Assembly (NCBI RefSeq): GCF_004010195.1
Contig: NW_025214720.1
Coordinates: forward strand, 1-50,000
DNA from: Chiloscyllium plagiosum
Lineage: Eukaryota
Reading direction: 5' to 3'
Length of the DNA stretch: 50,000 bases
Shown here: piece by piece, positions 32,668 to 49,122 of the stretch
Numbering within the stretch: the first letter of the stretch is position 1
Layout of the letters: each line of letters starts with the position of its first letter
Notes under the pieces: model-generated
The model's input: the letters and a program-made list of their open reading frames with translations, nothing else
Database searches by the model: none
What the model was told of the DNA's origin: nothing
Translations under genes and position numbers: made by a program

Positions 32668-32734
32668 ATTGGCCAAGCCACCTGCCGGCTGACGTGTTGC
32701 TGACGTTACTGGCCCTGAAGAGAGGTTATAAAAG
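32668..32734 (+). promoter_or_regulatory. Core promoter: reverse CCAAT (32668-32672), two CRE/ATF-like sites (TGACGTGT 32690-32697, TGACGTTA 32701-32708), TATA box TATAAAAG (32727-32734)
   Basis: Motifs read directly in canonical order and spacing; predicts a TSS near 32755-32760. Confidence 0.75.
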
Positions 32735-32756
32735 GATGCGGGCCAGCCGTCGCGGT

Positions 32757-32990
32757 GGAGGGAGGGGGAGGACGGCAACGTTAAAGACTTGGACGGCAGA
32801 GCCGGAGAGTGATAAACGCGCTCACGCCCACACTTCAATCTCTATATATACATCTCTCTCACGCACATACATACGTAGAGTGTCAGAGAGAGTGACAGCC
32901 AGGCTTCGGGAGAAACCGGACCTTTAGGCAGCGTGGAGCAGAGCGGAGCGCCTGAGCGAGACTCATTCTTCAATGAGTAAGCACATCCCT
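32757..32990 (+). other. PTP4A1: PTP4A1 exon 1 (5'UTR; contains the first 6 codons of the uORF); start approximate
   Basis: Lies downstream of the TATA box and ends at the consensus donor CCT|GTAAGT (32991-32996). Its only AUG is at 32973. Confidence 0.8.
32973..32990 (+). CDS. PTP4A1 upstream ORF, part 1 (MSKHIP), phase-0 splice to 43561
   Basis: ATG AGT AAG CAC ATC CCT followed immediately by GTAAGT; joins in frame to the exon 2 portion. Confidence 0.8.
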
Positions 32991-35239
32991 GTAAGTCGAC
33001 GACCGGTGTCCGTCTTCGTGCCGCGGCCACGCGCCGCCGCACACGCGCGCTGTTGTCACTGTGCCCCTGTCTCGGGGAGGCGGCGCTAGGCCCGAGCTGG
33101 CGGGACGTGATTTTGGGGGGAGGGGAGGGGGCTTCTGGCCACCGGCACTGTGTTCGCCGGCATTTAACGGTCGTTCCCTCACCCGAGAAGAAGCCCCCCC
33201 CAATCTCCTTTCTTCACCATCCGGCTTCCTGCTGTGACTTTTGGGGGGGGAGGGTGCGGGGATTCCTCTGGAGCTGTTAGGAAGGGTGGACCGGGGGAGG
33301 GGAGAAAGAGGCAGTGTCCGTCCACCCCCCCTCAAAAAAAATCCGCTGTCGCCGTCAAAATGGATACTCTCGCTAGACAATTAAACGTGGCCGGTCTGAG
33401 GCGGAAGTCTCCCTGTCGCCGCCTTTGGTCCGAGCCCCCTTTCCCTTTTGAGTGAGACTCTGACGCAGCCCGTCTCCCTGTTCAGCTCACCTCAGCTCCT
33501 GTCTGCTTTTCCCCTTCCTCACCTTGCTTTCTCGTCCCACTCTCCCCAGCCCTTTCTCCTCCCTCTTCTCCCCCACCCACCACCACGCATTCCACTTTCT
33601 TTCCTCCCCGTCGTCCTCTCAACTCTCTCATTCTTCCAGCTCTCCGACCTGTTTTCACCTGTGTACGGAGCCAATTTCTCTTCCTGAAGCGTGTCCCAAA
33701 GGTTTGGTTGGCATCTTGGGAGTTGATATCGCCTTGCAGTCTGTGGGATCTTGCTGAGCGCAGCCTGATTGCGGTGTGGTTCGCTAAGCTGTGCAGCGTC
33801 CTGAGGCAGGGGCAGGCGCTGCAGGAGTGCACGTGCGCCTTTTGGGGAAACGCTGCTGTGAGCAGTAGCGGAAAACTTTCATACATTGTGGAAAACAGTG
33901 GGTTCAATGTTTGAGGCGTTAATAAACAGCAAGCTTCAGACTAAACACAGCATGTACAATCACATGGCAGAGAGATTAAATGTGCAGTTAATACAGACAT
34001 AAAGCTAAGCTGCTTGAGTGGAGATTTTGATGTTGACCATGCCGCCCCTATCTTTATTCAGAATGTGTGGTTCTGATCAAATTTGCAACATGTTTTAATC
34101 CTTGACTTCTGGCTAGCTTGTGTGGGAGGCTCATCAGTGATGTCATGAGTGTCTATTTGACAGTTTGAAAGCGCTATCAATGTAGTTGCTGTGAGAAATT
34201 AAACTTCTCAATCCGTGCACCCTGTTGCAGTCCTAAATTTTAGGATTGTGCTGTCTATTGTAGTTTATACCAGCTGAGTGGTCTTCTACACTGCCTTTGC
34301 ATTATAGTTGCTTAATGGAAACCAGGATCAAAAGGGCAATTGTTGCCAAATTTAGCAGAAAAGTTTTGTTTTGAACTCTTACACTAATTTCATTAATTAT
34401 TTGGGTTGATTTCAGGAAATGCTAGGTCTTTATGCAGTTATAATGGTTGTCAAAGCAGTTTAGCATGTCACGTGTGGATTCTACAGAAATTGCATCTGTA
34501 GACATGAAGTCTGCAGTTTTGTAGAATATGTATATTTATCTGTACAGTTGTAGAGTTAATCTTGCCTATAAGTGGCAAACTAACTTCCTACCAATCTGAA
34601 TGTTTCCATATGTTTGAATTTTAAAGTTTAATCCATTTATTTGTCCAGTGGGTAATTGTTTTTGTTTCAAAACAAATTGCTGTAGAAGCTCCACAGGTCT
34701 GGCAGTGCTTGTGGAGATGAGGCAGAGTTAAAGTTGAGTCCAGTGACCCTTCAGACCTGGTTTACCTTTTGAAAAGGTACAAAATTTGAGTGCAGTTCAA
34801 ACTAGTGCAAACTACTGTTACTAAAGGCTTCAACTGAATCAGTCCTCTAGTTCTAAAAATTATGGCCTTTATTTGTGTAGTCTTTGAGTGCTGATTTTCA
34901 AACATATGCAAATTCTTAATTGCCAGTTTCCATTTGTCGAGTTGGATGTTTGGCCTTTGATCTATATGGGACTGGTGCTCCAGTGGTTTGGATGATAAAT
35001 TGTGGTGTATAAACTTTTTTTAAAAAGTGGTTGATAGTCTAAGATACTGGTCTTCAAAGTGCCTTGTACCTAATTTGGGGAGTGGAGCATGAGGAAAAGG
35101 ATATGTAGAATGTTTCCCTTGTTGAGTGACTGTATAACCCAAACCACGTGATCTTCACTTCCACCCTGAGCAAGGTAACTGGTTCTTCAGATGTTGCTGT
35201 CATTGTTCCAAAATTGAGGTTCATAAGGGGATTTTTTAA

Positions 35240-35520
35240 AAATATTTTGTAATCAATCTGTTCAGAGATGTTAAACACCTCGGGAGCTGGTAGAACTTGA
35301 ATCTGGGTCTCCTGGCTCAGATATGGAGGTATTACCATTGTGCCACAAGAGCCAGCAGTTCATGAGAAGGGGATTCTTATGTTCCACTGGGTTTCTTTTT
35401 TAAATTAACCTTTTCTAATCAACCTGTTGAAAGATGTTGCACACATCTAGAGCACATGGGACTTGAATCCACGCCTCCTGGTCCAGGGGTAGGGACACTG
35501 CCACTATGCCATAAAAGCCT
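35240..35520 (-). mobile_element. Two tandem copies of a ~110-bp tRNA-derived short element (other copies ~8040-8143 +, ~19487-19585 +, ~45600-45716 -)
   Basis: Shared consensus GGCTCTTGTGGCACAGTGGTAGTGTCCCTACC..GAGCCAGGAGG..GGTTCAAGTCCCAC..ATAACATCTCTGAACAGGTTGATTAGAAAA. Confidence 0.6.
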
Positions 35521-35814
35521 CTAATTCAAGAAACCGGCTTCTTACTGAATTTGCAACAACTGTTGGATACGGCATCTGTTGCTCTTTTATAGTATCGAGG
35601 TTGACTGTGTTTCATTCTGATAACATGCTGATAATATATACCGTTAAGTGAATGCAGCAGAAATAGAGGGCTGAAATGGGAGTGATTGAATCAGCAACTG
35701 GTTCAATCCATGTCAAAATTTCAAGGGGTGGACCTAAAAAATAATCAGTTGAGTGAAGTGATTTTTCATTTAGGTCCTTTTTATGTTCATTAAAAGCTTG
35801 ACTTTAAGTTAAAC

Positions 35815-36305
35815 CAGCAATTCTGGTCTTCCTCCTATGGAAAGGATGTGAAATTTGAAAGGGTTCAGAAAAGATTTACAATGATGGTGTCAGGATTGGA
35901 GGGTTTGAACTACAGAGAGAGACTGAATGAATAGGCTGGGGCTGTTTTCCCTGAAGCCGCAGAGGCTGAGGAGTGACCTTATAGACGTTTATAAAATCAT
36001 GAGGGCCATGGTTGGGGTAAATAAACAAGGTATTTCCTTAGAGTGAGGGAGTCCAGAACTACAGGTTTAGGGTGCGCGGAGAAGGGACCTAAGAACAACT
36101 TTTCATGCAGGGGATGGTGCGTGTATGGGATGAGCTGCCAGAGGAATTGTTGAAGGCTGGTACAATAACATTTAAAAGGTATATGAATAAGAAGGTTTAG
36201 TGATGTGGACCAAGTGCTTGCAAGTGGAATTAGATTAATTTAGGATATCTAGTTGGCATGAACAAATTGGACTGAAGGGTCTGTTTCTGTACTGTACATC
36301 TGACT
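35815..36305 (+). mobile_element. CR1/HER1 3' fragment in PTP4A1 intron 1
   Basis: GAAAGGGTTCAGAAAAGATTTACA...GAGCTGCCAGAGG...GAAGGGTCTGTTTCTGTACTGTAC. Confidence 0.85.
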
Positions 36306-38994
36306 TCGCTTCCTATGGAATCTGCATTGTGTGAACCATGAACCTTGTCCTGCTTAAGATCAATCGTCAATGCTCCTATCCTATCTTCCATCAAGTGTAG
36401 GTTCATGGGGTATGGAAAATAATCGCATTTCCAGGAACTGGTGTTGTAATGCAGGAGCTGGCTTGTGGAAAATGTTAATTTTGCGTGAAAAGCCCATTTT
36501 GTCATGTGCTTTACGCACATAGTGAAGGACTGTTGAACTAGTATGATGCTGTATCAGTTGATGGCACTATTACTCGTTTTGTTCACTTTGGCACTGCACT
36601 TTATTTGGATCATTTTCTGTGCAGTTGCAACATATCTGCCTCCCCCATATGATCAAAGTCAATTTGCCTTGCCAAGGTGATGGTTTGACACTGAACTTTG
36701 GTCAGTATTGTGAAATCCTCCATGGTTTCTGACACTGTCCATCCTTTCCATACATGTTCATATATTATGATGCAAGAATCTGCAGTAGTGTCAATATCCT
36801 TCTATTATCTCCATGCCAAAATTCTGGCTGGCATGTTCTTGTCATCTGTTTTCTTGATTTTGGTTAATAGGTCTTGAATGGAGTAGTTGATCCTTGATCT
36901 TTGGGCTGTGACAGTGAAGTTGAGTTCAGGGCAGGAAAGCGTTCATGTTTTTGGGCACGTAATCAAGGCTGATGGAGTGAGATAATCAGTTATCAAAATG
37001 CACAATACTTTGAAGGTGTAATTTTATTTTAAGTAATATGCTGTCTTGGCAGAGATGGCATACAGATGATCAGTTATGTAAATTTTCTTCAATAGCACTG
37101 CACGTACTGAGGTTTTGAGTTGTTTCAAATGTGATCAGGTGCTTGTACTCCTAACTCTCAGCCAGGTCACATGATGTTACACAGTGTGTAACTTTACCGA
37201 AGTGAAAAGTGTAATATTATATGTTCTGACTTAGTTTAATGTCTTGTATAATAAACTGTGCTGAATAAATTTGAAATGTGCCAGTTGATTTGATCTACAG
37301 TTGCCCCCAGTATCTGTAGAGGGAGATGAGCCCCCAAGGCGGTCTTAGCTTGGTGGAAATCGCGGTCTAATCAGAATTGTTTATGATCTGTTCATGAACT
37401 CCTTAAAACAAAATAGTTCAATTTTATTTAATGAGGACTGGTGACTGGAATCCTGTGTACTGTGCTGTCAGACTGGTAGAGACTGTGCCTTCAGATATCT
37501 GGTCAAGGTGAACCTGTTTAATTCCTTGTGACAAACTTCAAGAAATACTTACTCATGAAGGTTATATTTGAGTTTCAATGCTTTCAAAATGAGAAGTAAT
37601 GCAGTGAGACTTGGATCGTGGATGTGACAATAGGAGGTTTGATTTGAATGCAAGACTTTGCAATTTTTATCCACTGATGAGCCTTTCAAGTTGATCTAGT
37701 TGGAATTTGAGAGGAGTGTTTATTTAAAGAGGCAAAAAAAACCTGTCCTGCAAGAGCAGTCTGGATTTTTAATTTAAACAAACTCAGGCACCCACTGAAA
37801 GTAATCAGATTATACATTAGTTCTGATTTAATTGCTGATCTTAAACTTCTGCTTGAATTCAGTTGCATGCGTCCAAGCATAAATAGCTGCAGTGCTGCTG
37901 CAGGTCTATTTCCCAAATTATTAATTGAAAGAGTAATTTCCACTCCTCCCAATAGTTCATCTCAAAGCAGTGGAGGACTTGAATGTGGCATATGAAATAG
38001 ACTGCCCAGTCTCCTGTGTGCCTCAGTACAGAGGGTTACTTTTACTGCTTTTTGATCTGTTGTCTGAAAGGTTAGACCTGAAGTGCAAACTGCTTGTTTA
38101 TATACTACTTTTAAATTGCTCGATGCTTTCTGGAATGTTCAAACAAAATATTAGAGCTAAGTAAGATGATATTATGACCGGTGACCAACTGCTTAGTCAC
38201 AAGTTAGTTTACAAAAGTGTCTTGAAAGAAGAATGCTAAAGTGGAGGAATTGGCAAAAAATTGTAGAATTTAGGGCTTAGCTGAAGACAACTGCCAATTA
38301 TGCAGCCATTAAAATCAGGTGAGAATTGTTATATGGAGGTTGCCCAGGAGGTTGACAAGACTCGTCCTCTCAGATTTGAATAATAGATGCAAACTGGTTG
38401 AACTGGGACAACGAGTGCAGTTGATGGATGATTGGGGTGTGGCATCAGTTTTGGGTGAGCTGAAGTTTAGAGGCTGAGAAGAATTTGAATTAGAATTGGA
38501 TTTTGTCATGGGTGCTCAATACAGAAGTAAATGAGCTGAGTGAAAAGTGTACAATATCGCCAATGCCAGTGCAAAGGTTCTTTGGTACCAAGTAGAAAAA
38601 TAAATTGTTAAAAAGTTCAAGTCCTAGTATTAAGTAGAAAAATAAAGTTCACCAGTCTTAAATGCTTAGCCATGCTGGATTTGATCTTCTCTGCTTTGGT
38701 TTGCTTTCTGGGAGACCTTGGTCTGCCTGCTTTTGCTGCCACTGCAGATGCCAGGGGACCTCCTTCACCGCTGCATTGGGCTCATTCTTCCCGCATTGGG
38801 CTTGGTCTGACCATCAAAAGTCCTAATTCAGGGCTCCAACTGCTTCCACGCACCAGAAAGCAATGAACCGCAACAGTTTGTTGAAATATTAGTCAAAAAG
38901 GAACAAAGCATACATCAAGGTTTTAGCAATTCCAACGTCTACACAATTTTCTTACATTAATGTTTTATAGCATTTGCTGTTCTTTTATCAAAAA

Positions 38995-39187
38995 AGTACA
39001 ATGTGGAAGCAAGGTATTCAGCCCAGAGTCAACACCAAACCTCTGAAGAACATCCATCCCAAATCTACCCCGTTGCCCTGTACCTGTAACCCTGCATTTC
39101 CCATAGCTAGCCCACCTAGCATGCACATTCCTGGATACTATGGGCAATTTAGCATAGCTAGTCTATTGGACCTGCACATCTTTGGAT
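38995..39187 (-). mobile_element. HE1-type SINE 3' half
   Basis: Reverse complement of CCAAAGATGTGCAGGT...GCTAAATTGCCCATAGT. Confidence 0.7.
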
Positions 39188-39989
39188 CGTCTTTCCAGTA
39201 TTGTATTATTTTGTATTTTTTTCTGCTCTTACTCACCAGACTTTACTTAGTATTTCTGATCCAAGTTGTCCTGCTGCTTGATTTGTTGGCTGAAGTCCTT
39301 TTGGCCAACCCTGTACTAGGATCCTCAGCCCAGAATCTGCTCATTGCTTTTGTACCTCCCCTATTGTCTACAAGCAGCTGCTGGTTGGGGAAACCATATC
39401 ATCCTGTCAGTTGCATTGCACACTGGAACTTTGGAAACTAGTTGGTCCAAAGTTGACATTTTTCCTCCCAAGCAATGTTATGTTTGCTTTTAGTCTCAAG
39501 ATTAGCCTAGCCCAGAATGTACTTTAGGGAATAAAACTCTGAATCAATCTTAGCTGCTTCTACACTAGTATCTGGTTCATAGTTAGGACATGCACTACCA
39601 TATTACTTCCAATCTGCCTTAATTGGCAGTCCCTAACCAGCCATAGTTCCAGACTGGCAGTCCCTCTTCTTCCAACCTCCCTTAATACACACATCAATAG
39701 CAGAACATCTGCAGCACAATGATGCACACCACGATCTTCATTTGTCTTCCCTCCATCACTCCTCTTCCTCATTATCTAACTTTCATGCCTTGCCAAGCCG
39801 CTCTGTGCCTCATTCAATTGGAGCTGTACTTTCACTTTATAGGTTTTGGCTGTGTCCTTTGATCCTGGTATCTCTCACTGCTGTTGATGTTTAATCTGTA
39901 GCTCTTGCCTCTCTAATACTATCATACGTTTGTAAACTTTATTATTGTCGTCAACTTGTATTGCTCTGAATGTCCCTTTTTATTTACTT

Positions 39990-41200
39990 GACTGGGTGTT
40001 GCTGATTGGCCAGCATTTATTGCCTATCTCCACTTGTCCTTACAATGACGGTGAGCTGTCTCTTTGAGCCGCAGCAGGCGATGTGCTTCAGATAGACTCT
40101 CAATAGCCATATGGAGAGAATTCCATGATCCCAATCCGGTGATACACTTCCAAGTCGAGAAGAGTTGCCTGGAGACGAACCTGCTTCCATGTTTATGCTG
40201 CACAGTCTCTCCAAATGGAGGTAGCCATAGGTTTGGAAGATGCTGCTTAAGAATTTTTGCAGTTAATCATGTCTCGTACATACTCCTGTCACTGAGTAGT
40301 GACAGTGGACATTTCTAGATATGCCAGTCAAGTGGGTCATCTTATACCAGATGTGTCGAGCCTCTGAGCACTGCTGGAGCTGCACCCATCCAGGCAAATG
40401 AGGATCACTCCGCCACAGCTCTGACCCATGGTCTTACATGTTGATTGGTCCTTGGAGAGGCAACCCACCTTCCTCAGCATTCTCACACTCTGATCTGCTC
40501 TTGTAGCAACTGTATTTGTGACAAGTCCAGTTGCATCTCTGGTCTGTGGTTGGCCCTCAATTGTGGACACAGTGATAGTGACATTGAATGTCAAGGGGCA
40601 CTAGTTAGTTTCTTATTGGAGATGGTCATTGCCGGGCAGCTGTGATGCAAATGCCACTTGACATCCCAAGCCCAGACATTGTCCAAATCTTGTTGCGTCT
40701 GAATACAGACCACTTCAGAATCTGAGTTGTTACAAGTAGTGCTGAACATTGCAATCATTGAACATCCCCAGTTCATCCTTATGATGGAGGCAGTGTCCAA
40801 ATGAAATAGCTGCAGATGGTTGGTTCCAGGACATTATCTTCTGTATATAGGTATGACTTCAACCAGTGGAGAGTTTGCCCCCTGATCCCAATTATTCCAA
40901 TTTTGCTAGGCTCCTTGATGCTGCATTTATGAGGGCTGTACTCACCTCTCCTCTGGAGTTTGTTTTGTCCATTTTTGAACCAAGGTTGTAATGTCAGGAG
41001 CTGAGTGGTCCTGGCAGAAACCAAACCTGGTGTCAGTTAGCAGGTTGTTACATAGGTGCTGCTTGATAGCACTGATGACACCTTCATCAGCGTACTCATC
41101 AGTAAAGTGATGGAGGAGTAATCAGCTGAGTTAGTTTTGTCCTTTTTTTTTCTACACTGGACGTACCTGGATGATTTTCCATCATGTCAAGTAGAGCCAG
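39990..41200 (-). mobile_element. Old CR1/L2-clade LINE RT C-terminus and 3'UTR (distinct subfamily; related pieces ~18230-18620 + and 49230-49670 -)
   Basis: IGIRGQTLHWLKSYL, QQDLDNVWAWDVKW, AMTISNKK fragments. Confidence 0.7.
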
Positions 41201-43560
41201 TATGTGTGTCAATGTATTTTAGGTGGGTTGTGTTACTGTCAGTATTCTGATCCTCAATTCAAAATGAAATGCACTGTTATTAAGAAAATATTCTGTTTAA
41301 TGGGCTGGAAAAGAGCAGCTTAAATATTTAATGACGAAGTAATAAAATGTTCGATTTCTTTAGCTGTTACATAAACAAGTGATTTATTTTCTATCTATGG
41401 ATAAATTGTGTACGCAAGAAATAAGAGATTTATATTGGGGTAGTGAATGTATACTCAGAATTTTGTGCTAGCCAGATCCCATGAATAATGTGCTTAATAA
41501 TTATACCTTTGTCTTCAATAACCTTGATCAAATGTTTCCAGGACACTGGGAGAATGCTAGTGGGATTGTTGAATGGTCCTGTGGAGCATTTTATATCCAA
41601 CTGGGTGTGTGTGGCCTCAGTTTAATATCTCAGCATGCTTTTCCCCCAGTAGACTACAGCACTGTCACTGCATTTCAGTGGAAGTGTCAGCCTAGTTTTT
41701 AGACTCAAGTCTTTGGAATAGGGCTGTAATGTATAATTTCTGACTGGAGCAAGACTGCTATTGCAAGTTAAGACTGCAGTTACTAGCTTCCAATTTCCTG
41801 TAGGAATAATTGTCATTGGTCTTTGTGACTTTGTTACTTCCATCTGGTCCATTAAAAATGTGCTCAGTCACTACTGCCCTGTTCAATACATGCATCTTCG
41901 TGGTCTTATAAATTTTCAGTTTATAAGCAGTGGAAGCAACCAGTCAACGTATTGTAGATGTGCTGTTTAGAATTAGACTACAGTACTTTAGTGCTAAATC
42001 TGTCACTCATTTATCAAATAATTTACTAGATGTTTATGAACAATAAAGCTAGACTAAACCATTTAGCCCTGTGCGCCACCTCTTTTCAATGGCTGACCTG
42101 TTACCCAAATCTCTCTACCCACCTTTCTCCCATTTCTCAATTTTTTTTGCACTCCATTTGTTATAGAAATAATTGATCTAGCAATTGCTGCATTCTACAG
42201 AATAACTCCAAGACCTCACAAACTGTACATGGTGTTTCACAAATTGTCCTCAAAAGTCCCTTCAGTTTCCATGTCGCAGACTCGCCAAATAACTTTTCTA
42301 TATCCATCCCTTAATATCTTTAGTGCATTGGTCAAATAATCTTCTAAATTTCTTAATTTCAAGACAGTACCTTTCGTTGACGACCCTAATTTGTTTAATC
42401 TTGCATGTATAACTTGCAGATCTACAGTGGACTTTATTTTGAGGATGCTATTATGTCTGTAAATGGCTAGAAAGGAACTCAATCTCAGGTTTGGTCAAAG
42501 TAGAGCTTTCCATAGCTGAAGCACAATGAGCCACTTCTGTTCCAGGTGATATCAGTTTCTGGTGTTTTAAATAGGAAGGAAGTGTTCCCAAGCACTGTTT
42601 GAAGAGGGAGTTTATTTCAAAGTTTTTGTCCATGTTTTGCCCTCAACCTACGCTATCAGGCCTATATTTAATGTGCCTCAGGAAAGGTTTTCTTTGTGGT
42701 AGTTGAGTTTTCTGATCTTAGTTTGAATGTGATGCAACCAGATGAAATTGGGCATGCTTCATTTATGTCACGAGGGAAGTAAGTTCTTGGTGCAGTGTCG
42801 CTGTTTGCAATAATGCTTGAATTAACAAACATGTACGTACTGAGATGTTAGAATTACTGAGATTGAATACATCCTGCATACAGTTGCTTTCAGTGCTTCG
42901 TGAGGCACAGTGATACAGCTAATCTAGAAATTGAGGTCCAGTTACTGCCCCAGTGCCAAAGATGCTCTAAAGACCATAAACTGTTTTTAGAACTGGTACT
43001 TTTGTCTAAATTTCTTTTCCTTATGAAGAGTTTAAAAGAAGTTTGCACATATCATAATTAAGACATCACAATGTTATATTCCATTGATTCCTGCCCAGCT
43101 AGTGACTTCTAGTCTACATTCTAGCACGTCGTCAAAGAAACAAGCATAACGTGGGTTCTGACAGTCTGCCTGTGTGGAATTCAAATGTGCTGTAATAAGT
43201 CCTGAACATTGAAAACAATGCTTTTTTTTTTATTTTAAGGAGAATCCCAGTTAATGGGGCTATGTTTTGAAGTCTTTATCAATTGCTGCTTGTGGAATCT
43301 TGGAGTACATGAAAGCCATAAGTGATTTATTTGTGTTTAAGGTTGATTGAGGTAGTGTAGTTCTTAAGCAGATGTTGGCAGAAGGCTGTAACTCCACTGG
43401 CTGCTTTGCACCCAGATTCATGGTGACCTAAGTTGCAAGTTGGCCATGCAATACCTTGAAGTTCACTAGGCTTGTTGTTTTAACTAAACATTTGGTGCAC
43501 AATGAAGAGTACAAAATTCCTACATGTGCTCTATTTAATATTTCTGTTTTGTTTTTGCAG

Positions 43561-43656
43561 CAGTTCTGTGGTGTTCTAGGTCGCACATTTATGGAGTTTC
43601 TGAAGGGCAGTGGAGACTACTGCCAGGCACAGCACGACATCTATGCAGACAAGTGA
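43561..43656 (+). CDS. PTP4A1 upstream ORF, part 2 (QFCGVLGRTFMEFLKGSGDYCQAQHDIYADK*); spliced peptide is 37 aa
   Basis: Polypyrimidine tract and TTTTTGCAG acceptor end at 43560; open frame to TGA at 43654-43656; internal in-frame Met at 43591. Confidence 0.85.
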   Translation, partial: QFCGVLGRTFMEFLKGSGDYCQAQHDIYADK

Positions 43657-43943
43657 ACTGTAAAAGTCTACTACGATTCCACTTAAGAAACCCCTCAAGC
43701 AGGTTACCAGCGGCTGGGAATAATAATTCATCGAAGACCATATCTGGATGGGGTAACCAAGTGGGCTCTTTTTTGTTGGTCACAGTATTACTGGATTGAA
43801 GATTTGCTGCTTGTTAAAAGCGTCATCAAAAGCCTTTGTACGTGCATACATTCTGGTGGAATTTGACAAAACTGGACTTTTTAATTTTCAGCTTTTGCAA
43901 GGCATTGTTTTCACTTTATAGGTTTTGCGCTTTTTATAAGAAA

Positions 43944-44048
43944 ATGGCTCGGATGAATCGTCCAGCACCTGTGGAAATTACCTACAAGAACATGAGATTT
44001 CTGATCACACACAACCCTACCAATGCAACCTTAAATAAATTCATAGAG
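43944..44048 (+). CDS. PTP4A1: Protein tyrosine phosphatase 4A1 (PRL-1), coding exon 1, aa 1-35
   Basis: AAAATGG Kozak context; [35 protein letters not shown]; donor GAG|GTGAGA. The MAR N-terminus, TYKN and KFIE favour PTP4A1 over PTP4A2/3. Confidence 0.95.
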
Positions 44049-45097: not shown

Positions 45098-45190
45098 GAG
45101 TTGAAAAAGTACAGTGTCACCACAGTAGTTCGAGTATGTGAAGCAACCTACGACACCTCTCCAGTTGAAAAAGAAGGCATTCAGTTTTTG
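45098..45190 (+). CDS. PTP4A1: PTP4A1 coding exon 2, aa 36-66 (includes back-door Cys49)
   Basis: TTTTTCAG acceptor; [37 protein letters not shown] donor; 93 nt, phase 0/0. Confidence 0.95.
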
Positions 45191-46726: not shown

Positions 46727-46857
46727 GACTGGCCATTTGATGATGGTGCTCCACCTTCCAACCAGATTGTGGATGATTGGCTTACCCTTTTGAGAGCGAA
46801 ATTCCGTGAAGAGCCAGGTTGTTGCATTGCTGTCCATTGTGTAGCTGGTCTTGGACG
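46727..46857 (+). CDS. PTP4A1: PTP4A1 coding exon 3, aa 67-110 (WPFDD loop and catalytic HCVAGLGR P-loop, Cys104)
   Basis: TTTTTCTAACAG acceptor; [43 protein letters not shown](R); CG|GTATGT donor; 131 nt. Confidence 0.96.
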
Positions 46858-48119: not shown

Positions 48120-48565
48120 CGTGAGTTTTGAGAAGATTTGTAGTTCAGGTTGAGGTTCTAGATATAGGTTTGCTCACTGAGCTGGAAGGTTCATTTTCAG
48201 ACATTTAGTGACCATACTAGGTAACATCTTCACTGAGCCTCTGGACGAGGCACTGCTGATGATTTCTGCTTTCTATTTGTGTTTGGGTTTTTTGGGTTGG
48301 TGATGTCATTTCCTGTTCTTTTTCTCCGGGGATGGTAAATTGGATCCAAGTCAATGTTTGTTGGTAGATCCATCAACAAGCACATTGACTTGGACCTGAT
48401 TTGCCACCCCTGAGAAAAAGAATAGGAAATGACATCACCAACCTGAACGTATAGAAAGTAGCAATCATCAGTGCTTCGTCCGGAGGCTCACTGAAGATGT
48501 TACCTAGTATGTTGCCGAAATGGCTGAAAATGAACCTTCCAACTCAACAAGCAAACCTACATCCA
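48120..48565. mobile_element. Penelope-derived palindromic element (family C), ~200-nt arms
   Basis: 48160-48366 and 48371-48565 are reverse complements; each arm has a decayed hammerhead-like CTGAAGATGTTACCTAGTATG....GAAA motif. Confidence 0.75.
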
Positions 48566-48683
48566 TAATGCAGTTGTCTCAGATGTTCTTCAGTGTGTGC
48601 AGTGCAAGAAACTGCTAATCTGGCCCCAGATCGGTTTATAGTTATACATTCCATAGGCCAATTGGCAAAACCTGTCTGAATTT

Positions 48684-49047: not shown

Positions 49048-49122
49048 AGCTCCAGTTCTGGTGGCATTGGCACTAATTGAATGTGGAATGAAGTATGAAG
49101 ATGCTGTTCAGTTCATTCGACA
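49048..49122 (+). CDS. PTP4A1: PTP4A1 coding exon 4, aa 110-135; gene continues beyond the window
   Basis: CCTTTTCCTTTGCACAG acceptor; (R)[24 protein letters not shown](Q); CA|GTAAGT donor; 75 nt, phase 2/2. Confidence 0.95.

Follow-up and report, generated by a model that had tools for sequence, protein, structure and literature searches.

A spliced 37-codon upstream frame in the PTP4A1 leader of the shark Chiloscyllium plagiosum and its relatives 5′ of PRL genes in vertebrates and molluscs

The window analysed here, the whole stretch of 50,000 nucleotides (nt) from contig NW_025214720.1 of the shark Chiloscyllium plagiosum, contains in the leader of PTP4A1, the gene for the phosphatase PRL-1, a 37-codon upstream open reading frame (uORF) that is split by a large intron. 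We estimate a probability of roughly two in three that this uORF is a cis-acting, nascent-peptide-dependent brake on PRL-1 translation, set in a two-uORF leader that goes back to the ancestor that protostomes and deuterostomes share. Comparison at the sequence level establishes the frame, the splice layout, the weak contexts of both in-frame AUGs and the selection on the peptide; the shark uORF is confirmed as real, its splice being read from orthologues. A magnesium-sensitive PTP4A1/PRL-1 uORF was reportedly described in mammals by Hardy et al. in 2019. The uORF, the conservation of its peptide, its magnesium response and its RefSeq status are already known, and the shark copy is one more orthologue; the new part is the presence of the same peptide, together with a two-codon frame, 5′ of PRL in molluscs and other invertebrates.

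Layout of the uORF in the shark PTP4A1 leader

The uORF opens in a first exon, whose six codons end directly at a GTAAGT donor (32990|32991), and reading resumes in phase 0 after a CAG acceptor (43560|43561), to give 37 codons in total (6+31) and a distance of 287 nt from the stop to the main ATG at 43944. The positions given for the spliced uORF in the original prediction (32973, 32990, 43561, 43656 and the 287 nt) proved exact when the window was re-read. The elements of the leader are the following:

32952..32954, + strand: in-frame CUG, seven codons 5′ of the uORF AUG (placed by eye)
32973..32990, + strand: exon-1 part of the uORF, ATG and six codons MSKHIP, in a weak context (pyrimidine at −3, A at +4)
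32991..43560, + strand: predicted phase-0 GT-AG intron of 10,570 nt, the join being visible in orthologous mRNAs and proteins
43558..43563, + strand: tandem NAGNAG acceptor, by which Gln7 would be included (37 residues) or skipped (36 residues)
43561..43656, + strand: exon-2 part of the uORF, 31 codons and the stop (43654–43656)
43591..43635, + strand: conserved core, opening at codon 17 (the in-frame AUG inside the uORF) and closing with QAQH
43643..43663, + strand: out-of-frame six-codon uORF overlapping the uORF stop
43748..43756, + strand: AUG-Gly-stop uORF (pyrimidine at −3, G at +4), 187 nt 5′ of the main AUG
43944..44048, + strand: first coding segment of the PTP4A1 main open reading frame (ORF), its AUG standing in a strong context (A at −3, G at +4)

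Both in-frame AUGs of the uORF have a pyrimidine at −3, against the strong context of the main AUG. The internal AUG at 43591 alone yields a form of 21 residues, which lies entirely inside exon 2. The claim that ORF calling on unspliced DNA is blind to this uORF thus needs qualifying, as a caller with a low length cut-off picks up most of it. The NAGNAG tandem also occurs in three bony-fish-like loci, and there is an alligator isoform that lacks the Gln. In the shark paralogues, all three of them, and in human, mouse and lamprey, the final codon before the uORF stop is the same one; with this conserved stop the uORF is separate from the main ORF and not an N-terminal extension of it, although one gene model does fuse the two.

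Since just one of the two ATG-N15-GTRAG sites found 5′ in the window is open, and that one lies in a CpG island, the first exon of the uORF is not a chance match. This exon is within the CpG-richest part of the window 5′ of exon 2, and a genome search with exon 1 and promoter DNA gave no second match. A second donor-like site occurs at 32977, four bases into the uORF, and its use would shift exon 2 to another frame. The out-of-frame uORF at 43643..43663 is probably a by-product, and is missing in both paralogues.

The orthologous uORF in mammals

The human PTP4A1 uORF (LOC128125822) is an orthologue of the shark one, with the join, the end and the gene all shared. By eye, the two peptides share 35 of their 37 residues, the match continuing over the join and taking in the Gln of the proximal acceptor, and the difference of about two residues given in the original prediction is right; at the nucleotide level we counted, also by eye, 8 differences in 111 nt, 6 of them synonymous and 2 non-synonymous. 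In human and mouse mRNAs the uORF has 44 residues and reads straight through the join (NM_003463; PMC1402274). The shark lacks the extra upstream AUG of mammals, hence the 37 residues compared with 44: the CUG at 32952 sits where the 44-residue form has its first AUG, and may serve as a start. A further difference is that the shark has its tandem acceptor at the position of the human CAA codon for Gln. The peptide is kept from human to fish according to PMC3914846. The homology with the magnesium-responsive uORF of mammals, and selection on the peptide, were borne out by the 35 identical residues and by the substitution pattern reported below.

The novelty claimed at the outset was overstated, as the human peptide was published in 2006 (PMC1402274) and is now a RefSeq gene. 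Neither is the shark copy unannotated, as had been supposed: the Chiloscyllium punctatum gene model chiPu_0007315 (P0207) starts with the identical 37 residues and continues with PRL-1 fused to them. Being a prediction from a possibly close relative, this model gives the splice weak independent support, and it illustrates how gene predictors wrongly fuse such uORFs to the main protein.

Paralogous uORFs and relatives in other vertebrates

The shark genome also has PTP4A2-like and PTP4A3-like genes (named by similarity). In both, the exon-2 part of the uORF has the same length and the acceptor lies exactly ten codons 5′ of the internal Met; the 18-nt layout of the first exon is found in the PTP4A2 paralogue and in the PTP4A3 candidate, so that all three PRL paralogues show 37 codons split 6+31, the first exon of PTP4A3 being a candidate. 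For PTP4A2, an ATG followed by 15 nt and GTGAGT was found 81.5 kb upstream, in the sole CpG island of the 150 kb upstream. The like-formed site of PTP4A3 is 121.5 kb away on the upstream side, where it falls in the 500-nt window that ranks second in CpG richness, and its six residues resemble the lamprey N-terminus. The predicted joins are G000:C27:42872642^42954110 for PTP4A2 and G000:C4:19853212^19731701 for PTP4A3. Given a background of 0.033 open first-exon-like sites per kb (19 in 574 kb), or about 6% per 2-kb island, each of these two assignments is likely. In all three paralogues position −3 of the first AUG is a pyrimidine and position +4 is A. PTP4A2 and PTP4A3 have 12 of the 31 exon-2 residues in common, and the spacer leading to the main AUG otherwise cannot be aligned between paralogues. 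The known PTP4A2/PRL-2 uORF (LOC128031832) is a paralogous frame, with ten codons ahead of the internal Met and the core of the PTP4A1 uORF; for the PTP4A3 counterpart identified in the shark no description was found in the literature searched.

A word-index protein search with the PTP4A2 paralogue peptide gave no match, which reflects its limit of sensitivity, since a full hidden Markov model search, with a profile from two shark paralogue peptides, later gave 66 matches among 1.84 billion proteins. Counted from the internal Met, the first Met lies at 6+10 codons, the spacing of the shark uORF, in 12 of them and at 6+9 in 10; 41 have other upstream sequence and 3 are unrelated repeats. The names were looked up for 30 of the 66: these came from mammals, alligator, chicken, amphibians, bony fish and two lampreys, with no cartilaginous fish among the 30. 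LOC128125822 (human PTP4A1 uORF) and LOC128031832 (PTP4A2 uORF) are among the RefSeq names, and a divergent group of 10 includes three named molluscan hypothetical proteins (Elysia, Mizuhopecten and Argonauta).

Some related copies were noted in passing. One protein (P0063) reads PTP4A2 coding exons and then the PTP4A2 uORF exon in a single frame, which would be the order expected of a back-spliced circular RNA. Nine others (P0042, P0047, P0050, P0052, P0054, P0057, P0060, P0061 and P0065) are mammal-like, more diverged uORF copies without the Gln, and probably derive from processed PTP4A1 pseudogenes. At L006:1420–1560 (G000:C9, near 65939494) there is a 5′-truncated processed PTP4A2-like retrocopy, with two coding exons joined without an intron, and at L015:7900–8310 several AUGs occur within a GC-rich array of tandem units, each about 60 nt long, which lies just 5′ of exon 1 of PTP4A2.

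What is conserved in the peptide

To examine selection on the peptide, the proportions of non-synonymous (pN) and synonymous (pS) differences were calculated over 24 codons in 14 loci, the window excluded (91 pairs). Mean pS was 0.76 and mean pN 0.15; in the 10 invertebrates the values were 0.80 and 0.094, with pN below pS in 45/45 pairs. The resulting pN/pS, about 0.12–0.20, indicates purifying selection, as the original prediction expected of a functional peptide. Moreover, invariant residues are encoded by several codons (four for Ala and four for Gly), which argues for selection at the peptide level. A coding signal in the +1 frame, hinted at by first-position differences between paralogues, was rejected, as that frame has a stop inside the core in 7 of the 14 loci.

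Conservation begins at GHTF-like residues, takes in the internal Met, which is invariant in 16/16 other loci, and reaches as far as QAQH. Beyond QAQH there are 1 to 14 further residues: six in vertebrates, and a single one in 15 of 26 loci, many of these being near-duplicates. They differ among the three shark paralogues, and the proposed tail holds no conserved set of oxygen donors (Asp/Glu) in paralogues or invertebrates. Because conservation stops at QAQH, the acidic tail falls outside the core, and the suggestion that an Asp-rich tail is the metal sensor is not supported.

Invertebrate copies and the age of the uORF

A metagenome scan with a profile of the divergent molluscan group returned 28 loci. 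In 22 of them, 2 vertebrate and 20 invertebrate-type (several near-duplicates), the uORF is followed on its own strand by a PRL coding segment downstream, and since the query did not include PRL, the linkage does not depend on it. Intron-free invertebrate contigs carry the uORF and PRL together. In the other six no PRL segment follows: L061 is an unrelated sequence, L046, L057 and L067 run out in under 640 nt, and the 1260 nt and 871 nt downstream in L056 and L059, respectively, gave no PRL match. In a tree of 7 metagenome PRL proteins and 29 named ones, L050 grouped with the bivalve Mya (99/95), and L049 and L070 with heterobranch gastropods (100/99), while L052–L055 were unplaced, their best matches being annelid, nemertean or bivalve. 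Since the tree puts uORF-bearing PRL loci with molluscs, the uORF is, on this comparison, common to protostomes and deuterostomes and dates from their common ancestor. The origin in the jawed-vertebrate ancestor originally proposed is therefore too shallow, given the homologues in lampreys and 5′ of PRL in molluscs and spiralian-type loci. No arthropod, nematode, echinoderm or cnidarian copy turned up, no search having been aimed at these groups.

A CAG is present 27 nt 5′ of the internal Met in 22 of 26 loci, mostly after a pyrimidine tract, which is the position of the distal acceptor in the shark. This suggests that an ancestral intron ended at that CAG, the vertebrate Gln having arisen via a 3-nt acceptor shift, with the caveat that in spliced contigs the CAG can equally encode Gln. 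Invertebrates have kept the first segment of six codons only in part: L055, P0038 and P0049 have 6+9 codons, L053 has 5+9, and L049, L050 and L052 have other layouts. In a group of 10 loci (L062–L069, L071 and L072) a stop directly precedes the internal Met and leaves a frame of 16 residues, suggesting that the smallest unit is the internal-Met module.

A second, two-codon uORF

Between the uORF and the main AUG, every one of the three shark paralogues has an AUG-Gly-stop frame, as do three bony-fish-like loci and, among the 10 invertebrate loci tested, 9, two of the nine being close relatives; the tenth has AUG-Asp-stop. The context of all the AUG-Gly-stop frames combines a pyrimidine at −3 with G at +4, and dinucleotide shuffles of the spacers yield such a frame in 1–21 of 300 each. 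The group with the shortened uORF is missing it in 8/8 loci checked, with AUG-stop instead in 7/7 examined. We tentatively consider, as a reading with a little under an even chance, that a two-part PRL cassette, consisting of a stalling peptide with a 15–20-residue core ending in QAQH and of AUG-Gly-stop, has been kept since the protostome–deuterostome split, with the same intron position in molluscs, spiralian-type animals, lampreys and the three shark paralogues, PRL-3 included. If this is true and unreported, the peptide is among the oldest known regulatory uORF peptides of animals and a second conserved control element is added to it; the cassette would also fix the few residues and the probable pause site by which magnesium status controls PRL synthesis.

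As to earlier reports, full-text literature searches, with subscription papers mostly outside their reach, gave no description of the invertebrate range, the PTP4A3 copy or the two-codon frame. All three may be partly on record already; the taxonomic range of the PTP4A1 uORF is given in Fig. 2a and Table S2 of PMC7530721. A study of dipteran uORFs (PMC2276209) has no mention of PRL-1, CG4993 or phosphatase, and no PRL uORF is among the rows listed from 9 of the 16 supplementary files of PMC4568590.

As a separate observation, in the seven loci with AUG-stop (L062–L064, L066, L069, L071 and L072) an AUG follows immediately and opens about 80–95 extra codons in the PRL frame (7/7 open); from its sequence, an N-terminally extended PRL is possible there.

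A proposed mechanism and its alternatives

In the mechanism that we favour, ribosomes starting at either leaky AUG would pause with the core (about codons 12–31) in the exit tunnel. The pause would fall at or just after QAQH, and not at the vertebrate stop six codons on, because many invertebrate frames end one residue past QAQH. The paused ribosome would block scanning subunits, and queuing would favour more starts at the weak AUGs. Low Mg2+, via the energy-stress signalling of AMPK/mTORC2, would lift the block, and the increased PRL-1 would bind CNNM and restore Mg2+; both steps are reported in mammals and assumed for the shark. PRL-1 would act on TRPM7 as well. Subunits that pass the first uORF would reach AUG-Gly-stop and have to reinitiate, which would make it a second control point, and this reinitiation step may explain the resistance of the PTP4A1 leader to eIF2 phosphorylation (PMC4383229, PMC11347596).

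Several reports on mammals agree with the core of this scheme. The human PTP4A1 uORF represses the main ORF, and a frameshift relieves the repression in reporters (PMC7530721); in human cells, frameshifting or rearranging the uORF relieves both the repression and the magnesium sensitivity. Stalling, peptide dependence and the need for AMPK/mTORC2 are summarised for the PRL-1/2 uORFs in a review (PMC11855589), and the response of mammalian PRL to Mg2+ is also found in PMC10083557.

On the other hand, a number of points weigh against this interpretation. The results on stalling, magnesium and reporters come from mammals, and not from sharks or invertebrates, and the shark splice junction rests on the comparison with orthologues. 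The loci were gathered by peptide patterns, which lowers pN, and the pairs compared are non-independent. Both the long form and the mini-frame have exceptions, as the group of 10 loci has the stop before the internal Met and the 8 checked are without the Gly mini-frame. Synonymous sites between shark paralogues are more conserved in the uORF than expected, for which a model of the peptide alone offers no explanation. Finally, the human PTP4A2 peptide was found as an HLA ligand, so a released product exists (PMC13275300).

This last point touches the alternative that the peptide, once released, works in trans as a microprotein, either solely or besides its cis role, for example as a partner of PRL, CNNM or TRPM7. 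The PTP4A2 uORF (c1riboseqorf55) is annotated by GENCODE as protein coding with HLA-I evidence (PMC13275300), both LOC128125822 and LOC128031832 are RefSeq genes, the length of 37 codons is constant in the three shark paralogues, and dual-function precedents exist in MKKS and MIEF1 (PMC7530721). Against it, the relief by frameshift acts in cis, the placement 5′ of PRL is preserved across phyla, and the N- and C-termini vary, down to the 16-residue frame in one group; moreover, the relatives have no Pfam family (paralogue peptides) or PDB match (invertebrate profile), and HLA display speaks for synthesis, not for stability. We consider this explanation unlikely.

A direct binding of metal by the nascent peptide through a Cys/His/Asp motif, with stalling only in the bound state, seems to us about as improbable or slightly more so. 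The Cys and His of the core are invariant in 16/16 loci. Mg2+, however, favours oxygen ligands, and Cys and His suit Zn or Cu. The acidic tail is not conserved, and the Asp before Tyr-Cys is replaced by Glu in 4 and by Gly in 1 of the 16 loci. Small-molecule-dependent stalling is known for other conserved-peptide uORFs (PMC7530721), but the Mg2+ response reportedly needs AMPK/mTORC2 (PMC11855589).

That the conserved thing is an RNA element (a structure, a protein-binding site or a splicing signal) and the peptide incidental is very improbable, even though identical codons are in excess: at conserved degenerate residues PTP4A2 and PTP4A3 have the same codon at 9/11 positions in the uORF vs 33/75 in the main ORF (p=0.02), PTP4A1 and PTP4A2 at 15/19 (by eye) vs 46/84 (p=0.044), and the Cys codon is identical in 16/16 loci. 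Synonymous sites of invertebrates are saturated while the residues are kept, the PTP4A2 paralogue uORF folds no better than its shuffles (z=+1.08), and Rfam gave no match in 6/6 related loci. Hardly to be entertained is the idea that further splicing turns the segment into the N-terminal part of a longer PRL-1 isoform, as in chiPu_0007315 and in those of the 66 profile matches that continue past the usual end, since the stop stands at the same codon in three paralogues, human, mouse and lamprey, the spacer is unalignable among paralogues, and the model crosses it by three short pieces, as predictors seem to do when avoiding stops.

The brake in cis that we favour can be compared with known systems. 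Metabolite-sensing arrest uORFs are exemplified by AMD1 and AZIN1. Like the PRL uORF, arrest uORFs responding to polyamine, arginine or sucrose have a short peptide, a conserved C-terminal part, a leaky start and a role in homeostatic feedback (PMC7530721), but no similarity of sequence is expected between them, the PRL signal appears to be indirect (AMPK/mTORC2) and its likely pause site is not tied to a stop codon. The PRL leader further combines a very short uORF and a longer inhibitory one with resistance to eIF2 phosphorylation (PMC4383229), as ATF4-type leaders do; in these, however, the short uORF stands first and the inhibitory one second, overlapping the main ORF, whereas in PRL the order is reversed and both frames end before the main ORF. 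The uORFs of TRPM7 likewise control a magnesium-homeostasis gene, but are described as competition between uORF and main ORF, with no conserved peptide mentioned in the excerpts of PMC11855589.

The question behind this work is how magnesium is coupled to PRL translation at the level of residues. The comparison across phyla reduces the peptide to an invariant core of short length, speaks against a sensor role of the acidic tail, predicts the pause at or just after QAQH and reveals a second conserved uORF of two codons; core, tail, pause site and two-codon uORF are direct targets for mutagenesis. A further suggestion is that this brake was ancestrally present in PRL-3 too, which of the paralogues has the closest ties to metastasis, and that the PRL–CNNM axis was under translational control before vertebrates arose.

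Promoter region, host gene and surroundings

A motif scan placed a promoter-like cluster in the CpG island, and the remaining coding exons of the host gene follow the leader:

32668..32733, + strand: promoter-like cluster, with function and start site deduced from motifs
45098..45190, + strand: PTP4A1 coding exon
46727..46857, + strand: PTP4A1 coding exon with the catalytic motif
49048..49122, + strand: PTP4A1 coding exon, the last exon being outside the window

The cluster consists of a reverse CCAAT box (32668), TGACG half-sites (32690 and 32701) and a TATA-like box (32727), and an AUG at 32736 is 2 nt 3′ of this box. Thus the statement that the uORF has the only AUG of exon 1 holds if transcription begins 3′ of 32736, where the start site is presumed to lie. 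In the three paralogues, the heptamer GAGAGTG is found 85, 68 and 68 nt 5′ of the first uORF AUG (at 32888–32894 in the window, at about 8358 in L015 and at about 19853297 in G000:C4, respectively); the first exons being otherwise unalignable, it is possibly a start-site or leader motif, or due to chance.

The host gene is PTP4A1: the first coding segment is identical at 34/35 residues to the best PDB chain, a PRL-1 sequence, and among the 120 matches listed for the exon at 46727–46855, only three shark proteins reach 100% identity, from Mustelus and Rhincodon (both named PTP4A1) and Chiloscyllium (hypothetical). In positions 1–32500 of the window no neighbouring gene is evident; the long frames there look like decayed pieces of reverse transcriptase, which we take to come from long interspersed nuclear elements (LINEs). 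A nested inverted repeat at 48156–48568, in a PTP4A1 intron, with 105-nt arms 85% identical and inner 37-nt arms 95% identical, resembles a small non-autonomous DNA transposon.

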